The notes under the pieces are model-generated. The model saw nothing but the letters and a program-made list of their open reading frames with translations. It did no database searches and was not told the DNA's origin. Below are positions 151 to 16,549 of a DNA stretch of 19,837 nucleotides, in pieces. How positions within the stretch are numbered: the first letter of the stretch is position 1; the number at the start of each line of letters is the position of its first letter. The translations under genes and the position numbers were made by a program. This DNA comes from an uncultured Nitrospinota bacterium (lineage in GTDB: Bacteria > Nitrospinota > Nitrospinia > CAJXCL01): NCBI GenBank assembly GCA_964394335.1, contig CAYMVZ010000042.1, positions 1-19,837 on the forward strand, written 5' to 3'.

Positions 151-723
151 ATGGGCGCTACAAAAACAATAACATTATTTTTTATATTGCTGGTAATTCC
201 TGTTTCTTTATTTGCTCAAAGTAATGACGATCTAAAAAAGGCTATTTCTTTTTACAATAAAGGCAATTATTCAGAATCGGTTAAGCTTTTTGACCCTTAT
301 CTTGAAATAAAATCTGACCCAAAGGTTTATTACTTAAAAGGTTATGCGCTTTACAAAATGAGCAAATTTAATGAGGCGCGGGAAAGTTTTAGGCAAGCAT
401 ATCCACCTGACCCAATTCCTTTAATTGCTCAAGATAAAGCAATTGTTCAAAATAATGAAAACCTGAAAAAAAGAAAAGATGGCTTAATAGAAGCGATTTC
501 TCATTACAATAAAGGCAATTATTCAGAAGCAGTTAAGCTTTTTGATCTTTATCTTGAAAAAAATCCTGACCCGGAGGTTTATTTTTTAAGAGGTTACGCG
601 CTTTACAAAATGAGCAAATTTAATGAGGCGCGGGAAAGTTTCAGGCAAGCGTATGCTATTGATCCAGGAGTCAAAGTGAGTAAAGCATCAGATATACTGA
701 TTTTTCCTGATAAGTCTGATTAA
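151..723 (+). CDS. secreted TPR-like repeat protein with internal tandem duplication
   Basis: 190-aa ORF with an N-terminal signal peptide (MGATKTITLFFILLVIPVSLFAQ). It holds two near-identical modules of about 60 aa (YNKGNYSE[S/A]VKLFD...YALYKMSKFNEARESFRQAY), encoded by roughly 180-bp tandem copies at about nt 235-420 and 489-672 that are about 90% identical. The helical TPR-like character is inferred from the sequence pattern. Confidence 0.6.
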   Translation: MGATKTITLFFILLVIPVSLFAQSNDDLKKAISFYNKGNYSESVKLFDPYLEIKSDPKVYYLKGYALYKMSKFNEARESFRQAYPPDPIPLIAQDKAIVQNNENLKKRKDGLIEAISHYNKGNYSEAVKLFDLYLEKNPDPEVYFLRGYALYKMSKFNEARESFRQAYAIDPGVKVSKASDILIFPDKSD

Positions 724-826: not shown

Positions 827-2233
827 TTAAAAATTGAATTTATCCGGATTGTCCTCGATAAGTTTTGAAAAAGATTTATCCTCTCCAAATTTGGCTATCA
901 ATTCAGGATTAAGATCAAAAGCTTTATTTAAGATATTGATAGCCTTGGGCTCATCTCCATCAAAATAATATGCTTTTGCCTGGTTGAATTGCAGGTTAGG
1001 ATCATCAGCTTTAATCTCTAGCGCTTTTGCGTAGTTTGCAATCGCGTCTTTGAATTTTTTTTGTTTCCTCAGGGCTATGCCCAATTGGTTATAGAGGTGA
1101 ATGTGATTTTCGTTTATGCCTATCGCTGAGGTGAACAGGGCTTCGGCGTCCTGGAACAGGTTATGTTTTAAGCAAAAGTCTCCCGCTGTAAGGTAAAGAG
1201 ATGTTTGTTTTGGATGGCTCTTTATGGCTTGCTTATATACATCTAATGCCTCTTTTGGAAGTCCCTGCTCTATATAATTTTCAGCAAGACCGAGATAATT
1301 CTTGAGAAATTTATTGTTCTGTTCAATGCCTTTATCGAAATACGATTTGGCATTTTGGTAGTCTCCCTCCTTTTGATAGAGCACCCCAACGTTGTAACAT
1401 ACCTGAAGATTATTGGGTTCATATTCCAACACTTTCACGTAATTTTTTTTAGCCTCGGCTATATCGCCCAATTGTTCATAAGCCGTTCCGAGACCCTGGT
1501 ATGCCCTCGGGAAGTTAGCTTCAATTTCGATGATACGTTTGAAAAGCTGAATTGCATCATCGATATTACCCATCTCCAATAAAGTGTTGGCCTTTTCGGA
1601 GAGTATATCCACATTATCGCTGCTGATTTTAAGAGCTTTGTTGTAAATAGTGATAGCGCTTTCGAAGCTCCCCATATCCCTTAACTTATTCGCTTTAGAA
1701 ATAAGCTGGGTTACTTTTCTAACTGTCGAAGAGTTTTCCGGTGTTTTTAAAACTTCTACCAGCTTGTTTGCTAATGAAACTTGATTGCAAGGAAGCAGCA
1801 GCAATTGTGAGACACCTGCTTTAAGGGCAGTGACAATTTCATTTTTTTCATAAGAGTTCTCTATGAAAATAAATGGAATTAAATCGTGAATGTTCTCTTT
1901 GAGAAGCATCTCCTTTACAACATTGAATAGCTGTATTCCGGTTTGTGATGACGTGCGGACGTCCAGGATTTTTTGATGGCAAATAATTAGATCGATACTG
2001 CCAATATCATCTTTTAATTTTTTGGAAATTTCATAAGGGGAATTAGTGGCTTTTACATTTTGATTGATTCCAAGGGTCTCGAGGTGAGCTTTAATCTCTT
2101 CACGAACATTGAAATCCCCGCTGACAATAACAATTTTTTTGTCTACAAAAGTGGAAACTTTATCCCTGGCCTGCTTTAAATGCTGCTGCTGCTGTAGAAT
2201 ATCATGGACCTCATTTTGATGGCTTTTTTCCAT
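827..2233 (-). CDS. degenerate receiver (pseudo-receiver)-like N-terminal domain fused to an array of at least 8 TPR repeats
   Basis: 468-aa minus-strand ORF with a GGAGG RBS (revcomp of 2236-2245) a few nt upstream of the start. The N-terminal region (KIVIVSGD...IDLIICHQ...LKAGVSQLLLLP) follows a CheY-like alpha/beta pattern, but the positions expected for the acid pocket, phospho-Asp, Thr and Lys are substituted (SGD, H, E, P). The C-terminal ~330 aa is a run of canonical TPR units (e.g. AYEQLGDIAEAKKNYVKVLEYEPNN). Confidence 0.65.
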   Translation of the reverse strand: MEKSHQNEVHDILQQQQHLKQARDKVSTFVDKKIVIVSGDFNVREEIKAHLETLGINQNVKATNSPYEISKKLKDDIGSIDLIICHQKILDVRTSSQTGIQLFNVVKEMLLKENIHDLIPFIFIENSYEKNEIVTALKAGVSQLLLLPCNQVSLANKLVEVLKTPENSSTVRKVTQLISKANKLRDMGSFESAITIYNKALKISSDNVDILSEKANTLLEMGNIDDAIQLFKRIIEIEANFPRAYQGLGTAYEQLGDIAEAKKNYVKVLEYEPNNLQVCYNVGVLYQKEGDYQNAKSYFDKGIEQNNKFLKNYLGLAENYIEQGLPKEALDVYKQAIKSHPKQTSLYLTAGDFCLKHNLFQDAEALFTSAIGINENHIHLYNQLGIALRKQKKFKDAIANYAKALEIKADDPNLQFNQAKAYYFDGDEPKAINILNKAFDLNPELIAKFGEDKSFSKLIEDNPDKFNF

Positions 2234-3753: not shown

Positions 3754-3769
3754 TGGCATTCCTATTGCT
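3754..3769 (+). promoter_or_regulatory. sigma-54 (-24/-12) promoter for glnK-amtB
   Basis: TGGCAT-tccta-TTGCT matches the consensus TGGCAC-N5-TTGCW. GG lies at 3755-3756 and GC at 3767-3768, with the correct 10-nt spacing. It sits about 60 nt upstream of the glnK start. A possible enhancer-like inverted element tgcaccc...gtgca lies at 3689-3714. Confidence 0.55.
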
Positions 3770-3793: not shown

Positions 3794-4168
<375 letters not shown>

Positions 4169-4261: not shown

Positions 4262-5563
4262 ATGAAGCACAAAAAAGTAGGTTTTGTTTTATTAATTATT
4301 TTAAGTTTATTCATGTTGTCCGGTAATGTTTGGGCTGAAGAAGCGCCCAAACTTGATACTGGTGATACAGCCTGGATGTTGACTTCCACAATCCTTGTGC
4401 TGTTCATGACAATCCCCGGTTTGTCGCTGTTTTATGCCGGGCTGGTGCGTACCAAGAATGTGTTATCGGTGATGATGCAATGTTTTGCCATTACCGCCCT
4501 GATGACAATCTTGTGGACACTTTTTGGTTACAGCATTGCTTTTGGTGAGGGGGGCGCCCTTTGGGGCGGTCTGGGTAAGGCATTTCTCAAAGGTATAGGG
4601 GTAGACACTTTAAGCGGTACGATTCCTGAGACAGTGTTTGTCTGCTTCCAGATGACCTTTGCTATCATCACACCTGCGCTGATTGTTGGAGCTTTTGCTG
4701 AGCGCATGAAGTTTTCCGCTGTTCTGATTTTCATGAGCTTGTGGTTACTCATCGTTTATGCCCCGATTTGCCACTGGGTATGGGGTGGAGGCTGGCTTGG
4801 TAGTTGGGGTGTGCTGGATTTTGCCGGCGGCACTGTGGTGCATATTAATGCCGGTATTGCAGCCCTGGTTCTCTGTCTCGTTCTTGGAAAGCGTAAAGGT
4901 TTTCCGGAGACGGCAATGCCGCCTCATAATCTTGTTTTCACCGTGGTTGGCGCCTCAATGCTGTGGGTTGGCTGGTTTGGTTTTAATGCGGGCAGTGAAT
5001 TAGCGGCTGATGGCGTTGCCGGCATGGCCATGGCTGTGACTCAGATTGCCACCGCTGCTGCGGCTTTGGCCTGGATGTTCGCGGAATGGATTGGCCATGG
5101 CAAACCCAGTGCGTTGGGAATTGCTACAGGCGCTGTAGCAGGTCTGGTTGCAATTACACCTGCATCAGGTTCAGTTGGTCCCATGGGAGCTATCGCCATT
5201 GGTGCTGCATCTGGCGTGGGATGCTTTTTCGCCGCCACCACTATCAAGCGTGCGATGGGTTATGACGATTCCCTGGATGCCTTTGGGGTACATGGAGTCG
5301 GTGGTGCCATCGGTGCGATCCTGACAGGCATCTTCTCGGCTAAATCCCTGGGTGGAAGTGGCCTGGGCGACGGAAATGCGGGTATCGCCGCTCAACTGGT
5401 AGCCCAGTCTGTTGGTGTGATCGCAACGATCATTTACTCAGGCATTGGAAGCTTTATTATCTTGAAGATCACAGATGCTATTGTCGGTCTCAGGGTATCT
5501 GAAGAAGAAGAGGTTACCGGTCTGGACCTCAGCCTGCATGACGAAAAAGGCTACAATTTCTAA
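4262..5563 (+). CDS. amtB: ammonium transporter, Amt/AmtB family
   Basis: 433 aa with a signal peptide (MKHKKVGFVLLIILSLFMLSGNVWA). It has the Amt signature DFAGGTVVHINAG, 11 TM-like segments, and a GGAGGG RBS. The coding sequence is markedly GC-rich (about 53-60% in sampled 60-nt lines) relative to its flanks. Confidence 0.9.
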   Translation: MKHKKVGFVLLIILSLFMLSGNVWAEEAPKLDTGDTAWMLTSTILVLFMTIPGLSLFYAGLVRTKNVLSVMMQCFAITALMTILWTLFGYSIAFGEGGALWGGLGKAFLKGIGVDTLSGTIPETVFVCFQMTFAIITPALIVGAFAERMKFSAVLIFMSLWLLIVYAPICHWVWGGGWLGSWGVLDFAGGTVVHINAGIAALVLCLVLGKRKGFPETAMPPHNLVFTVVGASMLWVGWFGFNAGSELAADGVAGMAMAVTQIATAAAALAWMFAEWIGHGKPSALGIATGAVAGLVAITPASGSVGPMGAIAIGAASGVGCFFAATTIKRAMGYDDSLDAFGVHGVGGAIGAILTGIFSAKSLGGSGLGDGNAGIAAQLVAQSVGVIATIIYSGIGSFIILKITDAIVGLRVSEEEEVTGLDLSLHDEKGYNF

Positions 5564-5836: not shown

Positions 5837-7249
5837 ATGACACCAAAGGAGGTATTGGCATTTGCGAAAAAAAACAAGGCTGTCATGCTTGACGTCAGAT
5901 TTATGGATTTTCTTGGGTTATGGCAGCACTTCTCAGTCCCTGTTTCTGAATTGGATGAAAGTGTTTTTGAGGATGGATACGGATTTGACGGTTCCAGCAT
6001 CAGAGGCTGGCAGCCCATTCATGCCAGTGACATGCTGGTTATTCCTGATCCGGCTACAGCAGTTATGGATCCCTTTACACAGCACCCGACCCTTACCATG
6101 ATCTGCAATATTGTAGACCCAATCACAAAAGAAAAATACTCCAGGGATCCAAGAAATATTTCACAGAAGGCTGAAGCTTATCTGAAATCCACCGGGATCG
6201 CGGATACTGCTTATTTTGGTCCTGAGGCAGAGTTTTTTATTTTTGATGATATAAGATTCGACTCGGCAGAGCAGCACAGCTTTTATCATATAGATTCTGT
6301 AGAAGCACAGTGGAACACAGGCCGTGAGGAAAACCCGAACCTGGGGTATAAACCAAGATATAAAGAAGGTTACTTCCCTTGCCCTCCTTTTGATACTTTG
6401 CAGGATATCAGGACGGAAATGGTCCTGGTTATGGAACAGATCGGAATGAGCGTGGAGTGTCAGCATCACGAGGTTGCAACAGCCGGTCAGGGAGAAATAG
6501 ATATGAAATTCTCCCCCCTGACAAAAATGGGGGACAACCTAATGTGGTATAAACACATTGTTAAAAACGTAGCGAAAAGACATAATAAAACAGTTACATT
6601 TATGCCAAAGCCGATCTGGAATGACAATGGCTCAGGTATGCACACCCACCAGAGTCTTTGGAAAGGGAACAAACCTCTTTTTGCCGGGAGCAAATACGGT
6701 GGGTTAAGTGATACTGCTTTACATTATATCGGTGGTGTCTTAAAACATGCTTCGGCTTTATGTGCTTTTAGCAATCCAACAACCAACTCATACAAAAGGT
6801 TGGTACCTGGTTTTGAAGCGCCGGTTAACCTGGCTTATTCCAGCCGAAACAGGAGCGCCTGCGTAAGAATACCGATGTATTCTCCAAGTCCAAAAGCCAA
6901 GAGGGCGGAATTGAGATTTCCAGATCCTTCCTGTAATGGATATATGGCCTTTTCCGCTATGCTTATGGCCGGGCTGGACGGAATTGAAAATAAAATCGAT
7001 CCGGGAGATCCATTGGATAAAGATATTTACGCGCTCGGACCTGAAGAATTGGCCGCTGTTCCAAAAGTTCCGGGATCCTTAGAAGAAGCGCTGGTTGCCC
7101 TGGAAAAAGATAATGAATTTTTGTTGAAGGGAGATGTCTTTACCCAGGACGCAATCGACATGTGGCTGGAATATAAAAGGGAAAATGAAATTAATGCGAT
7201 GGCATTAAGACCACATCCTTTTGAATTTGAGCTTTATTATGATGTCTAA
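5837..7249 (+). CDS. glnA: glutamine synthetase type I
   Basis: 470 aa with an AGGAGGG RBS 9 nt upstream. The GS-I motifs [18 protein letters not shown] and [15 protein letters not shown] are present. A conserved Tyr in [11 protein letters not shown] corresponds to the adenylylation site of E. coli GS. Confidence 0.93.
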
Positions 7250-9431: not shown

Positions 9432-9447
9432 TGGCACGACAATTGTA
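9432..9447 (+). promoter_or_regulatory. sigma-54 (-24/-12) promoter for the ANTAR response-regulator gene
   Basis: tTGGCACGacaaTTGTA gives TGGCACG as a perfect -24 element (9432-9438) and TTGT at the -12 position, with correct 10-nt GG-to-G spacing. It is about 50 nt upstream of the TTG start. An adjacent 7-bp inverted repeat tgaaaaa-ca-tttttca lies at 9402-9417. Confidence 0.55.
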
Positions 9448-9498
9448 ATTATTTTAGAAGCTGGTTTGTTTTGCGAAAATTAATATAAAGGAGTTAAA

Positions 9499-10083
9499 TT
9501 GAAAACAATTAAAACTACACGTTTACTTATTGCAGATGATCAGAGTTTTTCAAGAGATGCTTTAAAAGACGCATTAATTGAAAAAGGTTTTGATATAGCG
9601 GGGGAAGCAGCTACCGGTAAAGAGGCAATTAAATTAAATAAAAAATTGAAGCCTGATTTGATTTTTATGGACGTAAAAATGCCGGAATTAAACGGGATCG
9701 AAGCATCTCATGAGATTAACTCTAAAAACCCTGTTCCGATAATACTTTTAACTGTAAAAGATGACCGAAGTACAATAGAAAGAGCCAAGTCAGCGGGAGT
9801 AATGGCATATCTTGTTAAACCTTTTAATAAAAAAGAATTGGTTCCCAATATAGAGATTGCCATTAAACGTTTTCATGAGTTTAAAAAAGTGAAAAATGAG
9901 AATGCTGATTTAAAAGCAAAACTAAATGCAAGAAAACTCATAGAAAAGGCAAAAGGAATTCTCATGGAAAAGCATAATATTAATGAACAGGAGGCATTTA
10001 GAATGGTTCAAAAGGCTGCAATGGATAAACATACTTCAATGAAAGAGATTGCAGAGAGCATAATTATGACTGCTGATTTATAG
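9499..10083 (+). CDS. response regulator with receiver domain plus ANTAR RNA-binding antiterminator domain (AmiR/NasT-like)
   Basis: 194 aa with a TTG start and an AAGGAG RBS 5 nt upstream. The receiver domain is intact: DD (IADDQ), phospho-Asp (FMDVKMP), Thr (LLTV) and Lys (LVKPF) are present. The C-terminal KLIEKAKGILMEKHNINEQEAFRMVQKAAMDKHTSMKEIAESII matches the ANTAR helical domain. Confidence 0.85.
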   Translation: MKTIKTTRLLIADDQSFSRDALKDALIEKGFDIAGEAATGKEAIKLNKKLKPDLIFMDVKMPELNGIEASHEINSKNPVPIILLTVKDDRSTIERAKSAGVMAYLVKPFNKKELVPNIEIAIKRFHEFKKVKNENADLKAKLNARKLIEKAKGILMEKHNINEQEAFRMVQKAAMDKHTSMKEIAESIIMTADL

Positions 10084-10124
10084 TACACATACTGTTCAAA
10101 GAAGAGCAGGAATAGAGAAAAAGC

Positions 10125-10180
10125 AAAGGCGCTTTTTAATTGGATCCACTTAAGTGGAGCAATGAAAGCGCCTTTTTTTT
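10125..10180 (+). terminator. strong two-tier intrinsic terminator between the ANTAR regulator gene and amt2
   Basis: The outer stem pairs aaaggcgcttt (10125-10135) with aaagcgccttt (10165-10175). It encloses an inner perfect palindrome tccacttaagtgga (10145-10158) and is followed by T8 (10173-10180). Confidence 0.75.
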
Positions 10181-10185
10181 AGTGT

Positions 10186-10417
10186 TCAGGAATGACATGT
10201 CGGGAATGCCCGTATAGTAAGACGTATGCATTTCAAAATGACAACGCATATGTATGCCAGATTGATATTTTGCACTGTTTTGTCATTCCCAACTTGATTG
10301 GGAATCCAGATAAAAGAATTCCTGGATTCTAACTAAATCTTGTCCTCAACCTGGATTCCCGCTAAGTGCATGCGGGAATGACATGTGGGGAACATGCGGG
10401 ACTGATATGTCAGGAGC
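10186..10417 (+). repeat. cluster of REP/MITE-like repeats (GGGAATGACATGT cores, gtcattccc/gggaatcc inverted units, 67-bp unit at 10351-10417)
   Basis: Contains caggaatgacatgtcgggaatgcccg, gtcattcccaacttgattgggaat, gaatccag...ctggattc, attcccgc-taagtgcat-gcgggaat, and gcgggaatgacatgtgggga followed by acatgcgggactgatatgtcagga. The 67-bp unit recurs at 16641-16709 at about 84% identity. Confidence 0.7.
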
Positions 10418-10442
10418 TTCAATTATTTAGGTCATTAAAAAA

Positions 10443-11744
10443 ATGAAAATTTTATTTTTCTTAATACTGAGTGTTTTTCTCATTTCAGATGATAGTTTTG
10501 CCGCAAGACTTCTTACGTCTGAGGACGTTCAGAGGAATCTCAATATAGTATGGATCATTTTTGCGGCGATCCTTATTTTTTTGATGAAGGCAGGATTCGC
10601 TATGGTGGAGATTGGGTTTACCCGTTCTAAAAACGCGGTAAATGCCCTCATGAAAAATTTTGTTGATTTCGCCATAAGCGCTGTAACGTTTTGGGCAATC
10701 GGTTTTGGATTTATGTTCGGCACAACCAATGGGATATTCGGCACAGATGGGTTTTATCTCCAGGACTACATAAAAAATCTTGATCCGTGGCTTTTCGCTT
10801 TTTGGATGTTCCAGGTCGTTTTTGTTTCTTCAACGGCTGCGATTGTTTCCGGAGCTATGGCCGAACGTACCCGGTTTGTTGCCAGTCTAATGTTTACTCT
10901 ACTGCTGACTGCTTTTATTTACCCGATTTTTGGAAGCTGGGTTTGGGGCGGACTCTATCATGGTAGCGGCTGGTTGGAAAGACTGGGATTTATTGATTTT
11001 GCCGGCTCTACTGTGATCCATGCCATAGGAGGTTGGGCAGGACTTGCTGGAACAATCGTTCTCGGACCCAGGCTGGGAAAATTCAGTGAGAAAGGAGTGC
11101 TAAAACCTATTTTAGGTCATAACCTCCCTCTCGCAGCTCTTGGGACTTTGATTTTGTGGTTTGGCTGGTATGGGTTTAATGCGGGAAACACGTTGGAAGG
11201 CAATGAAAAAATAGGGTTAATTATCATCAACACCACACTTGGTGGAGCGGCCGGAGCACTTGCAGGGATGACAACTATATGGCTTATTGCAGGAAAACCG
11301 GATGCAGGCATGACTCTTAATGGAGCATTAGCCGGGCTGGTAGGAATTACTGCCGGTTGCGTTTATGTGTCGCCTTTCTGGGCAATTGTGATAGGCCTTG
11401 TTGCCGGTTGTCTTGTAGTCTTTTCCGTTAAGTTTTTCGACAGTCTGAAAATTGATGATCCTGTTGGCGCTATCTCTGTGCATGGGGTTTGCGGTGTATG
11501 GGGAACTTTAGCGGTTGGTCTCTTTAAAACCGGAGAATTATTTAATTTAAAAAATCTTAGCGTACAATTTTTAGGTTCTATAGTAGCTTTTTTTTGGTCA
11601 TTTTTTGTGGCTTATGCGTTTTTTAAATTCATCGATTATTTAGTGGGTCTTAGGGTTTCTGCTGAGGAAGAGTTTCGAGGGTTGGACTATTCTGAACATG
11701 CGGCAGGAGCTTACCCGGATTTTCACGTTACCTCTATTAACTGA
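10443..11744 (+). CDS. amt: ammonium transporter, Amt family (second, AT-rich paralogue)
   Basis: 433 aa with a signal peptide (MKILFFLILSVFLISDDSFA) and the Amt signature DFAGSTVIHAIGGWAGL. It has about 11 TM segments. Its codon usage is AT-rich, unlike amtB at 4262-5563. Confidence 0.88.
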   Translation: MKILFFLILSVFLISDDSFAARLLTSEDVQRNLNIVWIIFAAILIFLMKAGFAMVEIGFTRSKNAVNALMKNFVDFAISAVTFWAIGFGFMFGTTNGIFGTDGFYLQDYIKNLDPWLFAFWMFQVVFVSSTAAIVSGAMAERTRFVASLMFTLLLTAFIYPIFGSWVWGGLYHGSGWLERLGFIDFAGSTVIHAIGGWAGLAGTIVLGPRLGKFSEKGVLKPILGHNLPLAALGTLILWFGWYGFNAGNTLEGNEKIGLIIINTTLGGAAGALAGMTTIWLIAGKPDAGMTLNGALAGLVGITAGCVYVSPFWAIVIGLVAGCLVVFSVKFFDSLKIDDPVGAISVHGVCGVWGTLAVGLFKTGELFNLKNLSVQFLGSIVAFFWSFFVAYAFFKFIDYLVGLRVSAEEEFRGLDYSEHAAGAYPDFHVTSIN

Positions 11745-11764
11745 AGAATTTTTTGGATATCTAA

Positions 11765-12307
11765 ATGAAATCTTTGCCGGAAGAAGATTCAGTTCGCAGG
11801 CTGCCGAGGCCTGCCAATAAGAAGCAGATTATTATTGCTGTCCTCGCAACGGCTTTTGTTTTGATTATTTTTTATAGCTTTACGTCAGTCTCTTATTATT
11901 ATTCATCGACAAATTATTTTTGCTCGACTCAATGTCATGAAATGGTGCAGCCCTATCAGGAGTATCTTTTGTCCAGCCATTATGACAGCAGGAAAGGTGT
12001 TGTAGCGGATTGCGCCGACTGTCATTTGCCCCCCGGGTTAGTAGATAAGTGGTTTGTAAAAACAAAACAGGGAGTCCATGACTCTCTGGTTCATTTTTTT
12101 GGTGATCCGGAAAATCTGGATCATAATGCGCTTAAAATTTCTGCAAGAAAAAATATTCATCCCGGCGCTTGTATGAAGTGTCATAAAAACCTGTTTCCTT
12201 CGGACTTGCCCCGGGGCGGTTTCAAGGCTCATAAAGCCTTTGAAAATCAGGAAGCTAATAATTGTGTGGATTGCCATGTAAACCTGGTGCATGTTTCAGC
12301 CGGTTAA
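11765..12307 (+). CDS. NapC/NirT/NrfH-family membrane-anchored tetrahaem cytochrome c (quinol dehydrogenase-like)
   Basis: 180 aa with an N-terminal TM anchor (IIIAVLATAFVLIIFYSF). It has four haem-binding motifs: CSTQCHEM (CX3CH, non-canonical), CADCH, CMKCH and CVDCH. It starts 21 nt after the amt2 stop, so the two are probably co-transcribed. Confidence 0.82.
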   Translation: MKSLPEEDSVRRLPRPANKKQIIIAVLATAFVLIIFYSFTSVSYYYSSTNYFCSTQCHEMVQPYQEYLLSSHYDSRKGVVADCADCHLPPGLVDKWFVKTKQGVHDSLVHFFGDPENLDHNALKISARKNIHPGACMKCHKNLFPSDLPRGGFKAHKAFENQEANNCVDCHVNLVHVSAG

Positions 12308-12360
12308 ATGAAAATTGCGGAGTTCAGACTAAGGAAGGCGGATTGTTGCTAACAATGTCC

Positions 12361-12510
12361 GTAAGTTCTCAATAAGTCGGGGTAAGCCAAGGTCCATAAG
12401 TTTGTCATTCCCGAATGTTCCCCGATTAGAGAGTTCGAGGACAAGCTTTATCGGGAATCCAGGAATCAGCTTGACTACTAGATTCCCGATAGGAACGCTC
12501 GGGAATGACA
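12361..12510 (+). repeat. composite REP/MITE-like element with a nested 75-bp insertion (family shared with 15122-15200)
   Basis: gtaagttctcaataagtcggggtaagccaaggtccataagtttgtcattcccga, then an insert at 12415-12489 ending in attcccga, then taggaacgctcgggaatgaca. Removing the insert reconstitutes the hairpin gtcattcccga-N9-tcgggaatgac seen intact at 15169-15199. Confidence 0.75.
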
Positions 12511-12635
12511 AGATAGGGTATAGCCAATAGTGACCTGGCCCTGAGAACAGGTTTTTTGTTTTATAATAAAATTATACTTTACACAGAAGATTCCCAGCAG
12601 CTTGCTTCGGGGAGCTTCAATTGGAGGTTATTTTA

Positions 12636-13934
12636 ATGGAAAACTCTTGTTATAAAAAAAGTAATTTTGCGGGAAGTCCTTCGCAATATTCAATTCGCAA
12701 TATTCAATTCTCAATTTTGCCTGCATTATTCCTCTGCTTATTAGCCTCCATTCTGTTTTCACAAGTGGCTCATGCGGCAAGAACAGAGGGAGAAAGGGAA
12801 ATTAGCAAAAAATGTATCCTTTGTCATCAGGAAATTTCCCCTGGGATCGTGAACGACTGGGAAAAAAGTAATCATGCGAGAAGCGACATTACTTGCATAG
12901 ACTGTCACCGGGCCGACCCGACAGATGCGGATGCATGGAAGCACGAAGGTACTTATATTTCCACTATCGTCAGCCCCAGGGATTGTTCCAAATGCCATCC
13001 CAAAGCAGTGAAAGAGTTTGTTGATTCCAAACATTCCGGAGCCGCTACCTTTTTAAAAGCTGAAGCAGGGGATAGGCATAAAGATAATATTTTGGCATAT
13101 ACAATTGAGGGAGCTGAAGCTGCTGTTGTGGGGTGCGAGAAATGCCACGGTAATGTTGTAAAAGTCAAAAACGGAAAATTTGAGCCAGGCTCCTGGCCGA
13201 ACGGTGGAATTGGCAGGGTAAACCCTGATGGAAGCCGTGGTTCCTGCACCGCCTGTCATACCCGGCATGTCTTTTCCGTTGCTGAGGCCAGAAAGCCGGA
13301 GACTTGCGGTACCTGCCACATGGGGCCCGACCACCCGCATATAGAGATATATCTGGAGTCCAAGCATGGGGTCATTTATTCCAGTGAAAAAGAGAAGTGG
13401 GATTTTGACATTCCGGCAAATTCCTGGGATGTCAAACATTTTCGAGCTCCTACCTGCGCGACATGCCATATGTCCGGCATTGGCAATTTGGAGCCGACTC
13501 ACGATGTTGGAAAGCGTCTTTCATGGGTCTTAAGGTCTCCCCTTTCCATTAAAACCAACGGCTGGCAGGTCAAAAGAGAAGAAATGAAAAAAGTCTGCCT
13601 TTCCTGTCATTCAGATGGATGGGCGGAGGGATATTATTTTCAACTTGATAATGCGATAGCTCTTTATAATGAAGAATATTATAAGCCGGTTAGAAAGGCA
13701 CTGGATGAATTATACGCACTTGGCATATTAACGAAGCAATCATTTGACGAAGAAATTGAGTTCACATGGTTTGAATATTGGCACCATGAAGGGAGAAGAG
13801 CAAGGATGGGTGCAGCCATGATGGGGCCGGATTTTGCCCAGTGGCATGGTTTTTATGAACTGGCTAAAAACCGCCTTAAACTTTTGAATGAGATAAAAAA
13901 AATGAAAAACAAAAAATTGAACTATAAGGAATAA
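12636..13934 (+). CDS. periplasmic octahaem cytochrome c (HAO/OTR-like multihaem family), putative nitrite/hydroxylamine oxidoreductase
   Basis: Eight CXXCH motifs: CILCH, CIDCH, CSKCH, CEKCH, CTACH, CGTCH, CATCH and CLSCH. A signal peptide is present (hydrophobic core ILPALFLCLLASILF, cleavage near AHA-A). The preferred start is the ATG at 12636 with GGAGG 8 nt upstream; the ORF track's TTG at 12621 has no RBS. Confidence 0.8.
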   Translation: MENSCYKKSNFAGSPSQYSIRNIQFSILPALFLCLLASILFSQVAHAARTEGEREISKKCILCHQEISPGIVNDWEKSNHARSDITCIDCHRADPTDADAWKHEGTYISTIVSPRDCSKCHPKAVKEFVDSKHSGAATFLKAEAGDRHKDNILAYTIEGAEAAVVGCEKCHGNVVKVKNGKFEPGSWPNGGIGRVNPDGSRGSCTACHTRHVFSVAEARKPETCGTCHMGPDHPHIEIYLESKHGVIYSSEKEKWDFDIPANSWDVKHFRAPTCATCHMSGIGNLEPTHDVGKRLSWVLRSPLSIKTNGWQVKREEMKKVCLSCHSDGWAEGYYFQLDNAIALYNEEYYKPVRKALDELYALGILTKQSFDEEIEFTWFEYWHHEGRRARMGAAMMGPDFAQWHGFYELAKNRLKLLNEIKKMKNKKLNYKE

Positions 13935-13937
13935 CCT

Positions 13938-15047
13938 ATGACACCGGCACTAAACAGTGAAGAAGCTTACAAAAATGTTTTGAGAGGGTTGTGGAACAAT
14001 CGCAGCGGTACTTATGAAGAATGGGAAACTCTCATTAAGGAACTCCCTCATTATGGAATGACTGAAGAGAAAGCGCGGGCCTTGGAACCAGATGTTAAAG
14101 AATCTCTCGGCGTTGTCGTTCCCTGGTCTATATTCGATAAACCCGGGTTTGAAACTTCAAAAGAAAAGATTGCAAAACGCTTCCTTTTCTTTTCGCTGAG
14201 CTTTTGTTTTTTTTTAGTAATGCTCTGGATTTACCAGAGAGTTGAACCGAAGGAAACTCAGGCCATGCACCCGGTGTTTGCTGAATCCTCTTTAAAGGTA
14301 GAAAAGCAAAGAAGTAATAAAACATTTTTGCCCTTTGACAAAATGGTGGAAATTAAAGGAGGAAACTTTCTGATGGGAAGCAGTGATGGCGACTTCGATG
14401 AAGAGCCGATTCACAGAGTTCATTTACTTCCTTTCCAATTAGCTGGATATGAGGTGACCTACAGTCAATTCCAGGAATTTATTAAAGAAAATCCTCATTG
14501 GGAAAAAGGAAAACCTGGAATGAACGAAGTGGATTTGAATTACCTGAAAGACTGGAATGGAACAGACTTCCCGAAAGGCAGGGAAAACTTCCCTGTTGTT
14601 TATGTAAGCTGGTTTGCTGCTTCAGCCTATGCGTACTGGTTTGGAAGGCGGCTGCCCACAGAATCAGAATGGGAGTATGCCGCAAGAGGAGGATTGAGGG
14701 GAATGCCATATCCCTGGGGAAAAGTATCCGAATTCTGGATCGCAAACATTAAAACAGAGGGTTTAATAAATATGCCCAAACCTGTCGGCAATTACAGCAT
14801 GAACGGGTTTAGAATTTTTGACATGGCGGGAAACGTCAGAGAATGGACAGCCGATGGTTATTCCCTTTATAATCCAGCAGAACAAAGAAATCCTCAAATG
14901 ACTACGAATCAAAGGTATAAAGTTGTCAGGGGAGGGTCCTGGGAAACTTTTGGGAGGGACTCCAGGGTATCGAAAAGGTGGAGGGAACGCCCAAATCATT
15001 GCGGGCCTGATATAGGTTTTCGCGTTGCAACCGATATTTATAGCTGA
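13938..15047 (+). CDS. FGE-sulfatase/SUMF1-domain membrane protein (NirV-like)
   Basis: 369 aa. The ATG is 3 nt after the octahaem stop, with the AAGGA RBS overlapping that stop, indicating translational coupling. It has an N-terminal cytoplasmic region, one TM helix (FLFFSLSFCFFLVMLWIY), and a C-terminal FGE/SUMF1 domain (GGNFLMGS...PVVYVSWFAASAYAYWFGRRLPTESEWEYAARGG...GNVREW...VVRGGSW...GFRVA). Confidence 0.8.
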   Translation: MTPALNSEEAYKNVLRGLWNNRSGTYEEWETLIKELPHYGMTEEKARALEPDVKESLGVVVPWSIFDKPGFETSKEKIAKRFLFFSLSFCFFLVMLWIYQRVEPKETQAMHPVFAESSLKVEKQRSNKTFLPFDKMVEIKGGNFLMGSSDGDFDEEPIHRVHLLPFQLAGYEVTYSQFQEFIKENPHWEKGKPGMNEVDLNYLKDWNGTDFPKGRENFPVVYVSWFAASAYAYWFGRRLPTESEWEYAARGGLRGMPYPWGKVSEFWIANIKTEGLINMPKPVGNYSMNGFRIFDMAGNVREWTADGYSLYNPAEQRNPQMTTNQRYKVVRGGSWETFGRDSRVSKRWRERPNHCGPDIGFRVATDIYS

Positions 15048-15121
15048 TTTTCGGGTTAGATCAGGGGATTGAAAAAATATTAGACTGGATAACAGGATGG
15101 ACATGATTAAATCCTTTTTAT

Positions 15122-15200
15122 GTAAGTTCTCAATAACAAAGTCGGGGTAAGCCAGGGTCCCTATGTTTGTCATTCCCGATAGGAACACTCGGGAATGACA
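15122..15200 (+). repeat. REP/MITE-like element, intact copy (gtaagttctcaataa...gtcattcccga-taggaacac-tcgggaatgac)
   Basis: 79 bp, near-identical to the flanks of the 12361-12510 copy but without the 75-bp insert. It contains a perfect 11-bp-stem hairpin at 15169-15199. Confidence 0.75.
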
Positions 15201-15228
15201 GGAAGGGTGATCTCCTCAACTCTGTATA

Positions 15229-15272
15229 AGGCGCTGTAAAAAGCAAAAACTTAACAGCGCCTAAACTTTTTG
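15229..15272 (+). terminator. candidate intrinsic terminator ending the amt2-cytochrome-FGE transcription unit
   Basis: A 9-bp GC-rich stem: aggcgctgt (15229-15237) paired with acagcgcct (15254-15262), with a 16-nt A-rich loop, followed by aaaCTTTTT. Confidence 0.45.
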
Positions 15273-15325: not shown

Positions 15326-16549
15326 ATGGATACAGATGCTCAGGATTTAAAAAAAGAGAATGAAATGAGAAGGGAGAATGAGATTCAAAAAATGGAACCG
15401 GGAAAAAAGGGAAAATTTAAAATAATCGTGGTGGCTGTTCTTCTTGCTGCAGGAATATATTATTCATTCGGAAACAACGATGCGGAAGAATATTCCGTGG
15501 TCCAGAAATGGCCGTCTGGAAGCCTGGATGTTGTCATGAAACCCGGTTTGTTCTGGGCAGGACCTTTTTCAAATGTTACCAGATTCAAGATATCGAGTGT
15601 TGTTAAGTTTTCCAGGAGTAAAGTGGGAGAAGAGACTATTGACCAATCGATCTTTGTTCGGTTTAAAGATAACGGAACAGCTAATATTAGAGGCATTGTA
15701 AAATATCTTCTTCCTACTGATCCTGAAAAAATCCGTATGATAAAAAATGAACTGGGCAATAATGACGTTATTTCTAATAAAGTGCTTAAAAACTTCGTCA
15801 ACCAGGTCCTTGTTAGAACAGCTTCTAATTACACAAGCAGCGAATCTATACGGGATCGCTCTGCTTTTTTTAACGATGTCAATGATGGATTAAAAAGTGG
15901 GAAGGGTCCTACTGGCCGCTACTCTATGCAGATACTGGCATTCACTCTAAACAAAATAATTTACGACCAGCAGTCTCAAGCCAAATTTGACGAACAACGC
16001 CTTCTGGAACAGCAGAAAAATAACGCTAAGATTCAGGCTGAAAAAGCACAGCAGGATGCTGTTACGGCAAAAGCCGAAGGAGAAAAACTGATAGCGCTAA
16101 CAAAGGCAAGAGAAGAAAATCTTAAGTTTGAGGCCACGGTCAGGGCGGAAAAGGCTGCGGAGATTGCCAGGATCAAAGCACAGGAAGAGAAGGCAGTCGC
16201 TATTACTGGCGCTCAAAAGGAGTTTGATGTTGCTAAACTGGAACTTGAAAAGGCAAAGCTGGAAAAAGAAGTTGTACTTTTAAAGGCTGAGGGCAGACGG
16301 AGCGCTGCTTTGAAAGAAGCGGAAGGAAGAAAGGCCCTGGCAGCAGCAGACAACTCACTCGAACTCAGGCTCAAGACTCAAAAAGAGATGATGATCGGTA
16401 TGGCCCAGGCATTAAAAGATGTGAAAGTGCCCTCCGCAATAATTGGGGCGTCTGGGAAATCGTCCGGGAATCCTGTCCTCGACCTGTTTTTAATGAACCA
16501 GATAAAATCGCTAACAGATATTAACTCCACGGGAGAAACCGGGAAATAA
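15326..16549 (+). CDS. SPFH/band-7 (flotillin/HflKC-like) membrane protein with extended coiled-coil
   Basis: Preferred start is the ATG at 15326 with GGAGG 8 nt upstream; the ORF track's TTG at 15311 is less likely. It has an N-terminal TM (FKIIVVAVLLAAGIYYSF), an SPFH-like domain, and a long Ala/Glu/Lys-rich coiled-coil segment (AEKAQQDAVTAKAEGEKLIALTKAREEN...). Confidence 0.65.
   Translation: MDTDAQDLKKENEMRRENEIQKMEPGKKGKFKIIVVAVLLAAGIYYSFGNNDAEEYSVVQKWPSGSLDVVMKPGLFWAGPFSNVTRFKISSVVKFSRSKVGEETIDQSIFVRFKDNGTANIRGIVKYLLPTDPEKIRMIKNELGNNDVISNKVLKNFVNQVLVRTASNYTSSESIRDRSAFFNDVNDGLKSGKGPTGRYSMQILAFTLNKIIYDQQSQAKFDEQRLLEQQKNNAKIQAEKAQQDAVTAKAEGEKLIALTKAREENLKFEATVRAEKAAEIARIKAQEEKAVAITGAQKEFDVAKLELEKAKLEKEVVLLKAEGRRSAALKEAEGRKALAAADNSLELRLKTQKEMMIGMAQALKDVKVPSAIIGASGKSSGNPVLDLFLMNQIKSLTDINSTGETGK

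Follow-up and report, generated by a model that had tools for sequence, protein, structure and literature searches.

Why should an octahaem cytochrome of the respiratory type be encoded behind an ammonium transporter gene, next to the genes of ammonium assimilation? The question is raised by a contig from an uncultured Nitrospinota bacterium (GTDB lineage Bacteria; Nitrospinota; Nitrospinia; CAJXCL01; assembly GCA_964394335.1, contig CAYMVZ010000042.1). The window analysed here is the whole stretch of 19,837 nt; coordinates are positions in it, and its genes were taken from the open reading frame (ORF) listing and from profile searches against Pfam and NCBIfam. They are arranged in the order glnK, amt1, glnA, a porin gene (- strand), a REC-ANTAR regulator gene, amt2, genes for a tetrahaem and an octahaem cytochrome, a gene for a protein resembling formylglycine-generating enzyme (FGE), a Band7 gene, and an oxoprolinase/caprolactamase-like gene (- strand). 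The five genes from amt2 to Band7 are treated below as a cassette. The reading we favour from its sequence, with moderate confidence, is that the cassette encodes a nitrogen-limitation-induced, quinol-driven periplasmic reductase module that would turn nitrite into ammonium for assimilation. The octahaem module possibly also acts on NO or hydroxylamine, and the whole would be for Nitrospinota what the 'ONR' system is for Nitrospira. A previous sequence-only reading of the region had named five + strand genes, those for the REC-ANTAR regulator, Amt, tetrahaem, octahaem and FGE-like proteins, with glnK, amtB and glnA as their neighbours; the ORF listing and Pfam bear out all five in place, and Pfam and NCBIfam the neighbours.

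Evidence that these genes belong together comes from their conservation. Loci were assembled from GTDB genomes, from individual homologue look-ups and from a metagenome scan (80 loci), and were then screened by tblastn with the window proteins. Co-occurrence was counted only in loci with enough flanking sequence, drawn from 15 loci in which the octahaem is at least 60% identical to that of the window and 80 loci in which it falls below 60%. The order amt-nrfH-octahaem-FGE-Band7 is kept in every locus of the close set and was never seen with the more distant homologues. An NrfH/NapC-like gene lies upstream of the octahaem gene in 13/13 close loci and 12/62 distant ones, and an amt gene in 11/11 and 5/47. 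An FGE-like gene follows directly in 12/12 close loci (0/65 distant), with a Band7 gene next downstream in 11/11 (0/50). Rieske and cytochrome b genes stand upstream in none of the close loci (0/12 and 0/13) and in 10/51 and 10/58 of the distant ones. Co-occurrence of octahaem homologues with amt and FGE-like genes had been proposed as a test of the module, and at 60% identity or more the association is strict. The unit had also been taken to end before the Band7 gene, which was wrong, since Band7 is a fifth conserved member. Chance adjacency of the cassette genes was rejected on co-occurrences of 11-13 out of 11-13.

This arrangement is found in at least seven lineages carrying three phylum labels. 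It is present in marine Nitrospinota, in groundwater members of UBA9942, in metagenome-assembled genomes (MAGs) labelled Nitrospirae (locus L009) and Planctomycetes (L010/L011), and in unbinned sequences (L012/L013, L017 and L018). Loci L006 and L007 come from the MAGs NC_39_25 and NC_39_30, which Kop et al. (2024) placed in class UBA9942. The genomes closest to the window are marine and groundwater Nitrospinota MAGs, and a Tara Oceans contig encodes a protein 100% identical to the FGE-like protein of the window. The glnK-amtB-glnA genes lie beside the cassette both in the window and in the UBA9942 loci.

The octahaem gene (12636-13934, + strand, in an ORF open from TTG 12621) encodes an HAO-family cytochrome c (Multi-haem_cyto, PF13447, 1.1e-34; 120.4 bits against a cut-off of 21.9). 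Translation probably starts at ATG 12636 rather than at TTG 12621, because a GGAGG lies 8 nt upstream and the homologue P0001 begins there. The predicted protein opens with a signal-peptide-like hydrophobic stretch and carries CXXCH motifs at residues 65, 92, 122, 172, 209, 229, 279 and 326, all of them invariant across 37 homologues; it contains no CXXCK. The family match and the count of eight motifs agree with the HAO type first proposed. The alternative offered at the same time, an octahaem tetrathionate reductase (OTR), fell away: OTR (1sp3) and MccA (4rkm) are absent both from the solved-structure sequence searches and from the 37 fold matches listed. The best solved relative by sequence is IhOCC (4qo5), which aligns end to end (4.5e-47 with the single sequence, 1.3e-74 with a 37-sequence profile); NeHAO and the Kuenenia HOX, HDH and HAOr proteins align only to about residue 374. 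The AlphaFold (AF2) model (mean predicted local distance difference test score, pLDDT, of 78), compared with the PDB by Foldseek, ranks the folds as follows. IhOCC comes at a template modelling (TM) score of 0.71 (E 7e-18; 26% identity over the structural alignment), Kuenenia HAOr Kustc0458 at 0.63, and NeHAO, KsHOX and HDH at 0.55-0.62. Membership of the octahaem nitrite reductase (ONR, TvNiR-type) or NrfA families was rejected: there is no CXXCK for a Lys-ligated catalytic haem, the fold matches are weak (TvNiR at TM 0.34; E 0.25 or worse), and sequence matches to NrfA are marginal (E 1e-4 or weaker). The absence of CXXCK and the weak TvNiR match make the Nitrospira name 'ONR' a functional label and not a statement of TvNiR-family membership.

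Whether such an enzyme would run oxidatively or reductively turns on the tyrosine crosslink of the P460 haem. In NeHAO the residue joined to the catalytic haem of the neighbouring subunit is Tyr467, which we located in the segment GGWTYTEGW of C-terminal fragments of ammonia-oxidiser HAO; neither HMMER nor hhalign aligned this segment to the cassette clade. The sole candidate position, in the motif GPD[F/Y]xQW, is Phe405 in the octahaem, with Phe and Tyr alternating among homologues, and the octahaem C-terminus aligns throughout with that of crosslink-less IhOCC. From this we infer that the octahaem lacks the crosslinking tyrosine, and hence lies outside the oxidative P460 HAO/HDH subgroup. 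It would be a reductive member of the HAO family, nearest IhOCC and HAOr, with nitrite, NO or hydroxylamine as predicted substrates. IhOCC is an octahaem nitrite reductase without P460 haem (PMC9250108), and crosslink-less HAOs reduce nitrite, NO and hydroxylamine while hardly oxidising (PMC8042395). Classification with a non-nitrogen substrate family had been put forward as the finding that would count against the module, and the octahaem groups instead with the reductive HAO relatives.

Electrons would be delivered by the product of the gene at 11765-12307 (+ strand), a tetrahaem quinol dehydrogenase of the NapC/NirT/NrfH type (Cytochrom_NNT, PF03264, 8.3e-30; 104 bits against a cut-off of 24). 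It lies close behind amt2, as had been noted, with a gap of 20 nt rather than the 21 nt given before. Hydrophobicity and the positive-inside rule indicate one N-terminal membrane helix (residues 22-40) and place most of the chain outside. In NCBIfam it comes closest to NrfH (3.6e-22; 79 bits against a cut-off of 134), and the protein is not assignable to NrfH, NapC or TorC specifically because it falls under every NCBIfam equivalog cut-off. Its haem motifs read CSTQCH(EM), CADCH, CMKCH and CVDCH, the first being a CX3CH followed by x-Met. This first motif (11921-11938, residues 53-58) takes the form C-S-[TSA]-[QK]-C-H-E-M in L001, L003-L007 and L016, that is, in all Nitrospinota copies, and is a canonical CXXCH (C[IV]SCHEM) in L009, L010, L012, L017 and L018. 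The Nitrospinota tetrahaems share, then, a conserved one-residue insertion within a haem attachment site.

The first gene of the cassette, amt2 (10443-11744, + strand), encodes a stand-alone Amt protein (Ammonium_transp, PF00909, 1.9e-116; 389 bits) whose closest solved relatives are the ammonium receptors Ks-Amt5 (3e-103) and Sd-Amt1 (1.7e-87). Transporters match it far less well (Af-Amt1, 2e-61; EcAmtB, 2e-55). Its pore motifs are intact, with W166 in the vestibule, the F127/F245 gate and the twin histidines H193/H347, and the vestibule serine is replaced by Asn249. The receptor hallmarks F52, E56, K71, N72, D75, F76, S136 and the exit Asn293 are retained; departures from the receptor signature are Q to K49, T to A133, Y to S148 and the vestibule S to N249. 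These departures are characteristic of the cassette. K49 occurs in 13/13 cassette Amts and A133, S148 and N249 in all except one or two of them (position 133 is Cys in L017, and L018 deviates at 75, 148, 245 and 249), and the four residues are found in 0, 1, 0 and 2, respectively, of the 150 nearest representative clusters. Among those 150 representatives, 130 exceed 560 residues and combine an N-terminal Amt domain with a long C-terminal extension, which is the receptor architecture. Amt2, at 433 residues, stops just past the conserved Amt C-terminal region and has no fused transducer domain. Cassette Amts are 64-70% identical between lineages and 43-47% identical to other Amts of the same UBA9942 genomes, which argues that they were inherited together with the cassette. 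Amt2 thus appears to belong to the ammonium-receptor clade of Amt proteins, with substitutions of its own. In Ks-Amt5 and Sd-Amt1 an intramembrane site accommodates two ammonium ions, and translocation is poor (PMC5764959, PMC11152129).

A further Amt of this kind occurs in a UBA9942 MAG. The stand-alone, glnK-linked Amt at 11301-12620 of locus L005 carries the Sd-Amt1 receptor signature at 11/11 positions examined, so that the signature alone is no proof of sensing. This suggests either that Amts of the receptor type may do without a fused transducer by signalling through GlnK, or that a protein with this signature can still be a transporter.

The gene at 13938-15047 (+ strand), which begins 3 nt past the octahaem stop codon, encodes a membrane-anchored, periplasmic protein of the FGE fold (FGE-sulfatase, PF03781, 1.5e-55; 189 bits). 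As judged by hydrophobicity and the positive-inside rule, a single N-terminal membrane helix anchors it and most of the chain lies outside; it matches solved bacterial and human FGE structures at about 1e-28. When it is aligned to the S. coelicolor enzyme (2q17), however, the catalytic LCHxSYC motif is replaced by GGSW---ETFGRD, with a deletion at the first cysteine and Gly at the second, and no cysteine is invariant among 20 cassette orthologues. It is therefore an FGE-fold protein and not an FGE, both catalytic copper-binding cysteines being missing. FGE-fold paralogues of this sort include pFGE, PvdO, NirV and PorK. Its predicted structure has a pLDDT of 62, falling below 50 in the C-terminal half of the domain. 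Homologues at 42% identity or less were discarded as a functional guide, being encoded in unrelated contexts (peptidase C39, dynamin/HSP70) that were uninformative. The marine Nitrospinota copies also have an extra cytoplasmic N-terminus of about 80 residues (13938-14180) that is absent from all other lineages; it is confidently predicted to form a three-helix bundle, with block means mostly of 78-92 and of about 60 at the ends.

The last member is an SPFH/Band7 protein (15326-16549, + strand, in an ORF open from TTG 15311; PF01145, 1.4e-13, 51.7 bits against a cut-off of 23.6). The probable start codon is ATG 15326, 15 nt inside the ORF and 8 nt after a GGAGG. A membrane helix at residues 36-54 is flanked by five Lys/Arg residues on its N side and one on its C side, and is followed by a long coiled-coil tail; the positive-inside rule predicts an N-in orientation with the bulk of the protein in the periplasm. 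Its only solved sequence relative is prohibitin (E 0.004), and HflK/C-like and flotillin-like assignments are not separable. In L009-L012 the Band7 gene lies 3-26 nt behind the FGE-like gene or overlaps it, and this tight spacing marks Band7 as part of the unit. In the window the two genes are separated by a hairpin at 15229-15272 (+ strand) that had been read as the terminator of the unit. It does fold (-20 kcal/mol with flanks, z -4.2), but with a 17-nt loop and a poor T-tail. It was missed by a terminator scan and is absent from the corresponding spacers of L001, L002 and L016.

How the cassette is likely to be controlled can be read from the DNA in front of it. A pattern search places a sigma-54-like promoter, TGGCACGACAATTGT, at 9432-9446 (+ strand), upstream of the REC-ANTAR gene; in the form TGGCAC-N5-TTGT it has a perfect -24 element and perfect spacing, with GT instead of GC in the -12 element. 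The counterpart in L001, TGGCATGAAATTTGT, likewise has TTGT at -12, and this conservation says little because the flanks are 89% identical. Two other sites lie in the window: a canonical one, TGGCATTCCTATTGC (TGGCAT-N5-TTGC; 3754-3768, + strand), before glnK, and TGGTATATAAGTTGC (9171-9157, - strand) upstream of the porin gene. With the relaxed pattern used, these three sites compare with 0.33 expected, and 0/200 shuffled sequences reach three; all are intergenic and each points at a nitrogen-related gene (glnK, porin, ANTAR gene). In L004, L006, L009 and L010/L011 the cassette amt has a canonical sigma-54 site immediately in front of it, and L005 has a near-match. A gene for a full-length NifA-like GAF activator lies immediately upstream of the cassette in L009 (NifA match of 462 bits). 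Control of the NorR type (NO-sensing) was rejected for this locus, since NorR matches begin only at residue 121 and leave most of the GAF region uncovered. In L012 a PAS kinase and an NtrC-family regulator are encoded downstream of the cassette.

The regulator gene itself (9499-10083, + strand) encodes a receiver domain (Response_reg, PF00072, 1.9e-27) joined to an ANTAR domain (PF03861, 1.4e-21; 76 bits against a cut-off of 27), the architecture of EutV, PdtaR and NasT. Its phospho-acceptor residues (DD13-14, D58, T86 and K108) are apparently present, and its orthologues in L001 and L016 are 89-94% identical. The leader that follows contains two small hairpins and a terminator. P1 (10092-10109, + strand; CUGUUC-AAAGAA-GAGCAG, -5.8 kcal/mol) keeps the A1 and G4 of its hexaloop in L001 and L016. 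P2, the putative antiterminator (10118-10137, + strand; AAAAAGC-AAAGGC-GCUUUUU, -5.4 kcal/mol), shows no difference in either locus. The loop and 3' arm of P2 double as the 5' arm of an intrinsic terminator (overlap at 10126-10136), which runs as GGCGCUUU...AAAGCGCC followed by U8 (10126-10180, + strand; -24.1 kcal/mol, z -5.1). By folding and by hand comparison, the leader at 10092-10180 satisfies the published definition of an ANTAR target: two hairpins with stems of at least 3 bp and hexaloops carrying A1 and G4, the second overlapping the 5' base of a terminator (PMC3369931). The terminator is kept in L001 and L016, where it ends about 55 nt before the amt2 start; with so short a distance, read-through from the ANTAR promoter is the most economical route to cassette expression. 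No covariation was seen in the hairpins, the leader being present in three close relatives only, with one stem position that varies uncompensated. Rfam at gathering thresholds matched no family over the window, leader included. With loops longer than 8 nt, neither the leader terminator nor the 15229 hairpin was picked up by a simple terminator scan.

Control of the nitrogen type through sigma-54 and ANTAR had been claimed for this unit. It remains likely, given the ANTAR switch and the canonical sites elsewhere, although the unit's own -12 element is noncanonical. The predicted logic is a conjunction of nitrogen limitation, acting through sigma-54, with a second signal acting through the phosphorylated ANTAR protein, as in classical nas operons. 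Such operons are classically transcribed from NtrC/sigma-54 promoters that respond to nitrogen limitation. The ANTAR half of the logic is exemplified by NasR at the nasF leader (PMC3369931) and by NasT (PMC10783516).

Put together, these elements suggest the following course of events. Under nitrogen limitation an NtrC-type activator would fire the sigma-54 promoters of glnK-amt1, the porin gene and the REC-ANTAR gene. Transcription from the last of these would halt at 10126-10180 unless the regulator were active. In its phosphorylated form, the regulator would bind both A..G hexaloops and stabilise P2, sequestering the 5' arm of the terminator through the overlap seen in the RNA; the second signal is perhaps nitrite. 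Read-through would then express amt2 and the nrfH-like, octahaem and FGE-like genes, and probably Band7 too. The membrane tetrahaem would pass electrons from quinol to the periplasmic octahaem, which should work reductively because it lacks the P460 tyrosine crosslink, as its family assignment and the published biochemistry of its relatives lead one to expect. The Amt of the cassette would import or detect the ammonium formed in the periplasm, and the glutamine synthetase encoded nearby would fix it. The SPFH protein and the FGE-like protein without cysteines would most likely tether the complex to the membrane and give it a scaffold, a pure conjecture.

The wider neighbourhood and the spacers of the cassette add several observations. 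The nitrogen genes upstream are glnK (3830-4168, + strand), downstream of the sigma-54 site at 3754-3768, amt1 of the AmtB type (4262-5563, + strand) and glnA (5837-7249, + strand). They are followed by a gene for a BBP2/OmpL-type porin (8842-7820, - strand), which carries the sigma-54-like site upstream of it and matches the phosphate-selective Porin_O_P family weakly. In UBA9942 loci the porin gene is syntenic with the cassette, in the order Band7-porin-glnK-amt. The porin may be a nitrogen-regulated outer-membrane entry for nitrite or ammonium. At the left end of the window, two TPR-repeat proteins are encoded at 827-2233 (- strand) and 151-723 (+ strand). One of them, of 468 residues, has a possible N-terminal receiver-like region, recognised by eye only, and its top NCBIfam match is MamA, far under the cut-off; no link between the TPR proteins and the cassette was seen. 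In other genomes, L010 (6832-8175) and L011 (8281-9624) carry a second HAO-like octahaem gene, its product 44% identical, after the cassette, with another NapC-like gene at 11081-11635 of L010. Upstream of the cassette in L012 (1-5469) lie an hcp (Hcp/prismane) gene and a gene for a molybdopterin Nap-like oxidoreductase with ferredoxin-type partners.

Three spacers of the window hold palindromic repeats. Units of the GGAATGACATGTCGGGAA type form an insertion at 10189-10416 (repeat families D1 and D3; absent from L001 and L016), the repeat TTGTCATTCCCGA...TCGGGAATGACAA occupies 12374-12513 in the nrfH-octahaem spacer (D1, D2, I3 and I5), and a third copy lies at 15139-15203 in the FGE-Band7 spacer (D1, D2, I2 and I4). 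They resemble repetitive extragenic palindromic (REP) or miniature inverted-repeat transposable (MITE) elements, with the core TTGTCATTCCCGA...TCGGGAATGACAA plus GGAATCCAGGAAT units, and are missing from the corresponding spacers of L001, L002 and L016. The repeats add 260 nt to the ANTAR-amt2 leader in the window, and the nrfH-octahaem spacer measures 313 nt here against about 74 nt in L001. The long spacers, 360 nt between ANTAR and amt2 and 313 nt between NrfH and octahaem genes, are thus due to lineage-specific palindromic repeat insertions.

The route from nitrite to ammonium, through Amt and on to glutamine synthetase had been offered as one reading of the locus. It stays plausible and has a parallel in Nitrospira; amt2 itself may take up the product, sense it or act as a platform for docking. 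Several findings weigh against an assimilatory module. Amt2 is not of the AmtB type; its nearest characterised relatives are receptors, it retains the exit-narrowing Asn, and 130/150 of its nearest representatives bear long C-terminal extensions. The 9432 promoter has GT rather than the canonical GC at -12. The absence of the crosslinking tyrosine is deduced from a failed alignment and from a Phe at the sole candidate position. The octahaem product (NH4+, NO or NH2OH) is not readable from sequence, and Kuenenia HAOr yields NO. All members of the cassette come from uncultured organisms, and the genes around it in L010/L011 and L012, taken up below, would also suit respiration or detoxification. 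The contender we take most seriously, while rating it below the assimilatory reading with uptake, keeps the same enzyme chemistry and makes the Amt-like protein an ammonium receptor or gate that feeds back on the module. Bulk uptake would then fall to amt1. The signal could be the periplasmic product or ambient ammonium, and the possible routes are ammonium-dependent GlnK binding and direct contact with the membrane cytochrome. That the Amt might be a sensor was the alternative already raised in the sequence-only reading. The affinity of amt2 to two characterised receptors, the eight hallmark residues it shares with them and the receptor-type architecture of its nearest representatives make this a serious possibility, as does the separate AmtB-type transporter encoded with glnK 5 kb upstream. 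Set against it, amt2 has no fused output domain, and three residues tied to the N1/N2 site together with the vestibule serine are altered in a cassette-specific way seen in only 0-2 of its 150 nearest relatives, so that it is not a standard receptor either. The L005 Amt, stand-alone with a full signature, also indicates that the signature may be a clade trait compatible with transport.

A respiratory role, in which the module performs nitrite ammonification for energy in the manner of NrfHA or epsilon-Hao, or a role in the detoxification of nitrite, NO or hydroxylamine under nitrosative stress, appears unlikely to us. Its attractions are that an NrfH-type quinol dehydrogenase with a periplasmic multihaem reductase is the wiring of NrfHA, that ammonification by Hao has been suggested for Deferribacter and other organisms (PMC6896113), and that the non-Nitrospinia classes are likely nitrate reducers living on hydrogen or reduced sulfur compounds (Kop et al.). 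The hcp gene and Nap-like molybdoenzyme within 5 kb of the cassette in L012, and the second HAO-like and further NapC-like genes in L010/L011, lean the same way. Yet the cassette always begins with an amt gene that is inherited along with it (11/11), it sits among glnK, amt and glnA in Nitrospinota, and it has sigma-54 promoters and an antiterminator layer of the kind typical of nas operons. The L009 activator is NifA-like and not NorR-like, and no FNR- or NarL-type signals were seen, though no search was aimed at them. Very improbable is an octahaem working on a non-nitrogen substrate such as sulfite, tetrathionate or metals, with the amt link incidental. Multihaem cytochromes are promiscuous, and as MccA and OTR also reduce nitrite the reverse is conceivable. 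Every sequence match, however, is in the HAO family and the amt linkage is strict across several phylum labels. The 37 listed fold matches include neither OTR nor MccA, ONR and NrfA fall far behind the HAO clade, and DmsE/decahaem matches in NCBIfam are weak and reflect generic haem motifs only.

A more elaborate picture can be drawn, which we regard as a speculation with rather poor prospects. The five proteins might form one membrane machine for ammonium capture, in which a trimeric octahaem docks threefold-on-threefold onto a trimeric, receptor-derived Amt, the FGE-fold protein serves as a tether, an HflK/C-like SPFH cage in the periplasm encloses the assembly, and Lys49 replaces the receptor-bound ammonium. 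If this were so, ammonium and the toxic NO and hydroxylamine intermediates derived from nitrite would never equilibrate with the periplasm, and Lys49 would restore a conduit from what had become a sensor, or make of it a gate linked to catalysis.

If the module is assimilatory, it would give a route for growth on nitrite to Nitrospinota that do not oxidise it, namely UBA9942 and marine relatives, and it would change the reading of the nitrogen niche of Nitrospinota in oxygen-minimum zones and groundwater. According to Kop et al. (2024), the non-Nitrospinia classes of the phylum have neither assimilatory nitrite reductases nor proteins that import and break down nitrite. The cassette is discrete, easily recognised and widespread in uncultured lineages, and the annotations 'hydroxylamine oxidoreductase' and 'formylglycine-generating enzyme' that its products attract are both misleading. 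It also raises the questions of what a cysteine-less FGE fold does at a nitrite reductase (compare NirV), why an SPFH scaffold should be needed, and how an Amt of ammonium-receptor descent works with a lysine in its ligand site.

The arrangement had been thought to be without precedent, and in this respect the sequence-only reading was mistaken: an assimilatory octahaem beside gln and amt genes is preceded by the Nitrospira 'ONR', by the NapC-linked octahaem of lineage IV and by a proposal for Nautilia. The Nitrospira 'ONR', known from N. moscoviensis and N. japonica, was published as an assimilatory nitrite reductase encoded beside glnA, amtB and glnK, with expression on nitrite found by reverse transcription PCR in strain NJ1 (PMC5767232). 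Later papers describe it as expressed on nitrite and not with ammonium, and as highly transcribed in nitrite-grown N. moscoviensis (PMC6606698). In lineage IV Nitrospirales, NapC takes the place of the Rieske/cytochrome b proteins at the octahaem (PMC12342949). The octahaems are homologous: P0120, labelled Nitrospira, is 46% identical to that of the window, and the homologues linked to Rieske/cytochrome b genes are 47-53% identical. The Rieske/cytochrome b-octahaem loci we found have the published Nitrospira 'ONR' arrangement, and in five of them amt and/or glnA lie immediately upstream. Both systems are periplasmic, apparently quinol-linked, and next to glnA, amt and glnK. They differ in electron input, which is of the NrfH/NapC type in the cassette and Rieske/cytochrome b in Nitrospira. 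The cassette amt, moreover, is the first gene of the unit and belongs to the receptor-type clade rather than the AmtB type. FGE-like and SPFH proteins are obligatory in the cassette and never accompany octahaems below 60% identity, and the marine cassette lineage has an ANTAR layer. A comparative-genomics paper on Nitrospirales, searched for FGE-like and SPFH members, does not mention them. Full-text searches found no paper joining hydroxylamine oxidoreductase with formylglycine, and HAO combined with SPFH/stomatin likewise gave no description of the cassette. The searchable literature yielded no account of the five-gene cassette, its FGE-like and SPFH members, its receptor-derived Amt or its occurrence in UBA9942, a silence that is not proof.

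The reverse-HURM and epsilon-Hao systems of Nautilia, Campylobacter and relatives and the archaeal IhOCC share with the cassette a crosslink-less octahaem of the HAO family and a quinol dehydrogenase of the NapC/NrfH superfamily; amt, FGE-like and SPFH genes are not described for them. In the passage of PMC8042395 that cites Haase 2017, a crosslink-less HAO of the epsilon-Hao type is stated to reduce nitrite and hydroxylamine in vitro. For Nautilia, nitrate assimilation by a reverse Hao/cM552 (reverse-HURM) module was proposed in 2009 (PMC2628731); that model needs a cytoplasmic Hcp to complete the reduction, whereas the window has no hcp and the cassette amt points to periplasmic ammonium. 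For the FGE-like protein of the cassette, the closest functional parallel is NirV, a DUF323/FGE-fold protein encoded beside nirK in about 61% of the genomes that have that gene; it is dispensable for activity (PMC4770552, PMC1262709). By description, it is like the cassette protein in belonging to the FGE-sulfatase family and in being encoded directly downstream of a periplasmic nitrite reductase. The cassette protein differs in having an octahaem and not NirK as its partner, and in being membrane-anchored. Amt2 belongs to the same subfamily as Ks-Amt5 and Sd-Amt1 and keeps their Glu, Asn and Asp at the N1/N2 sites, Lys71 and the exit Asn, yet it has neither a kinase nor a diguanylate cyclase domain and differs at K49, A133, S148 and N249.

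With the NasR and NasT systems (Klebsiella nasF; NasST of Azotobacter, Pseudomonas and Paracoccus), the leader shares two A1/G4 hexaloop hairpins and the terminator overlap. The cassette differs from them in that the regulator gene itself lies between promoter and terminator, making the unit self-contained. Its receiver looks phosphorylatable like those of EutV and PdtaR, with no NasS/NIT sensor nearby and no cognate kinase in the window. The enzyme it would control is periplasmic and haem-based, unlike the cytoplasmic sirohaem enzymes NirA and NirBD. The use of a respiratory-type periplasmic octahaem for assimilation was thus already known from Nitrospira, and our findings extend that idea and overturn none; what is new is the cassette itself, with its receptor-derived Amt, its cysteine-less FGE-like protein, its SPFH protein and its occurrence in UBA9942.

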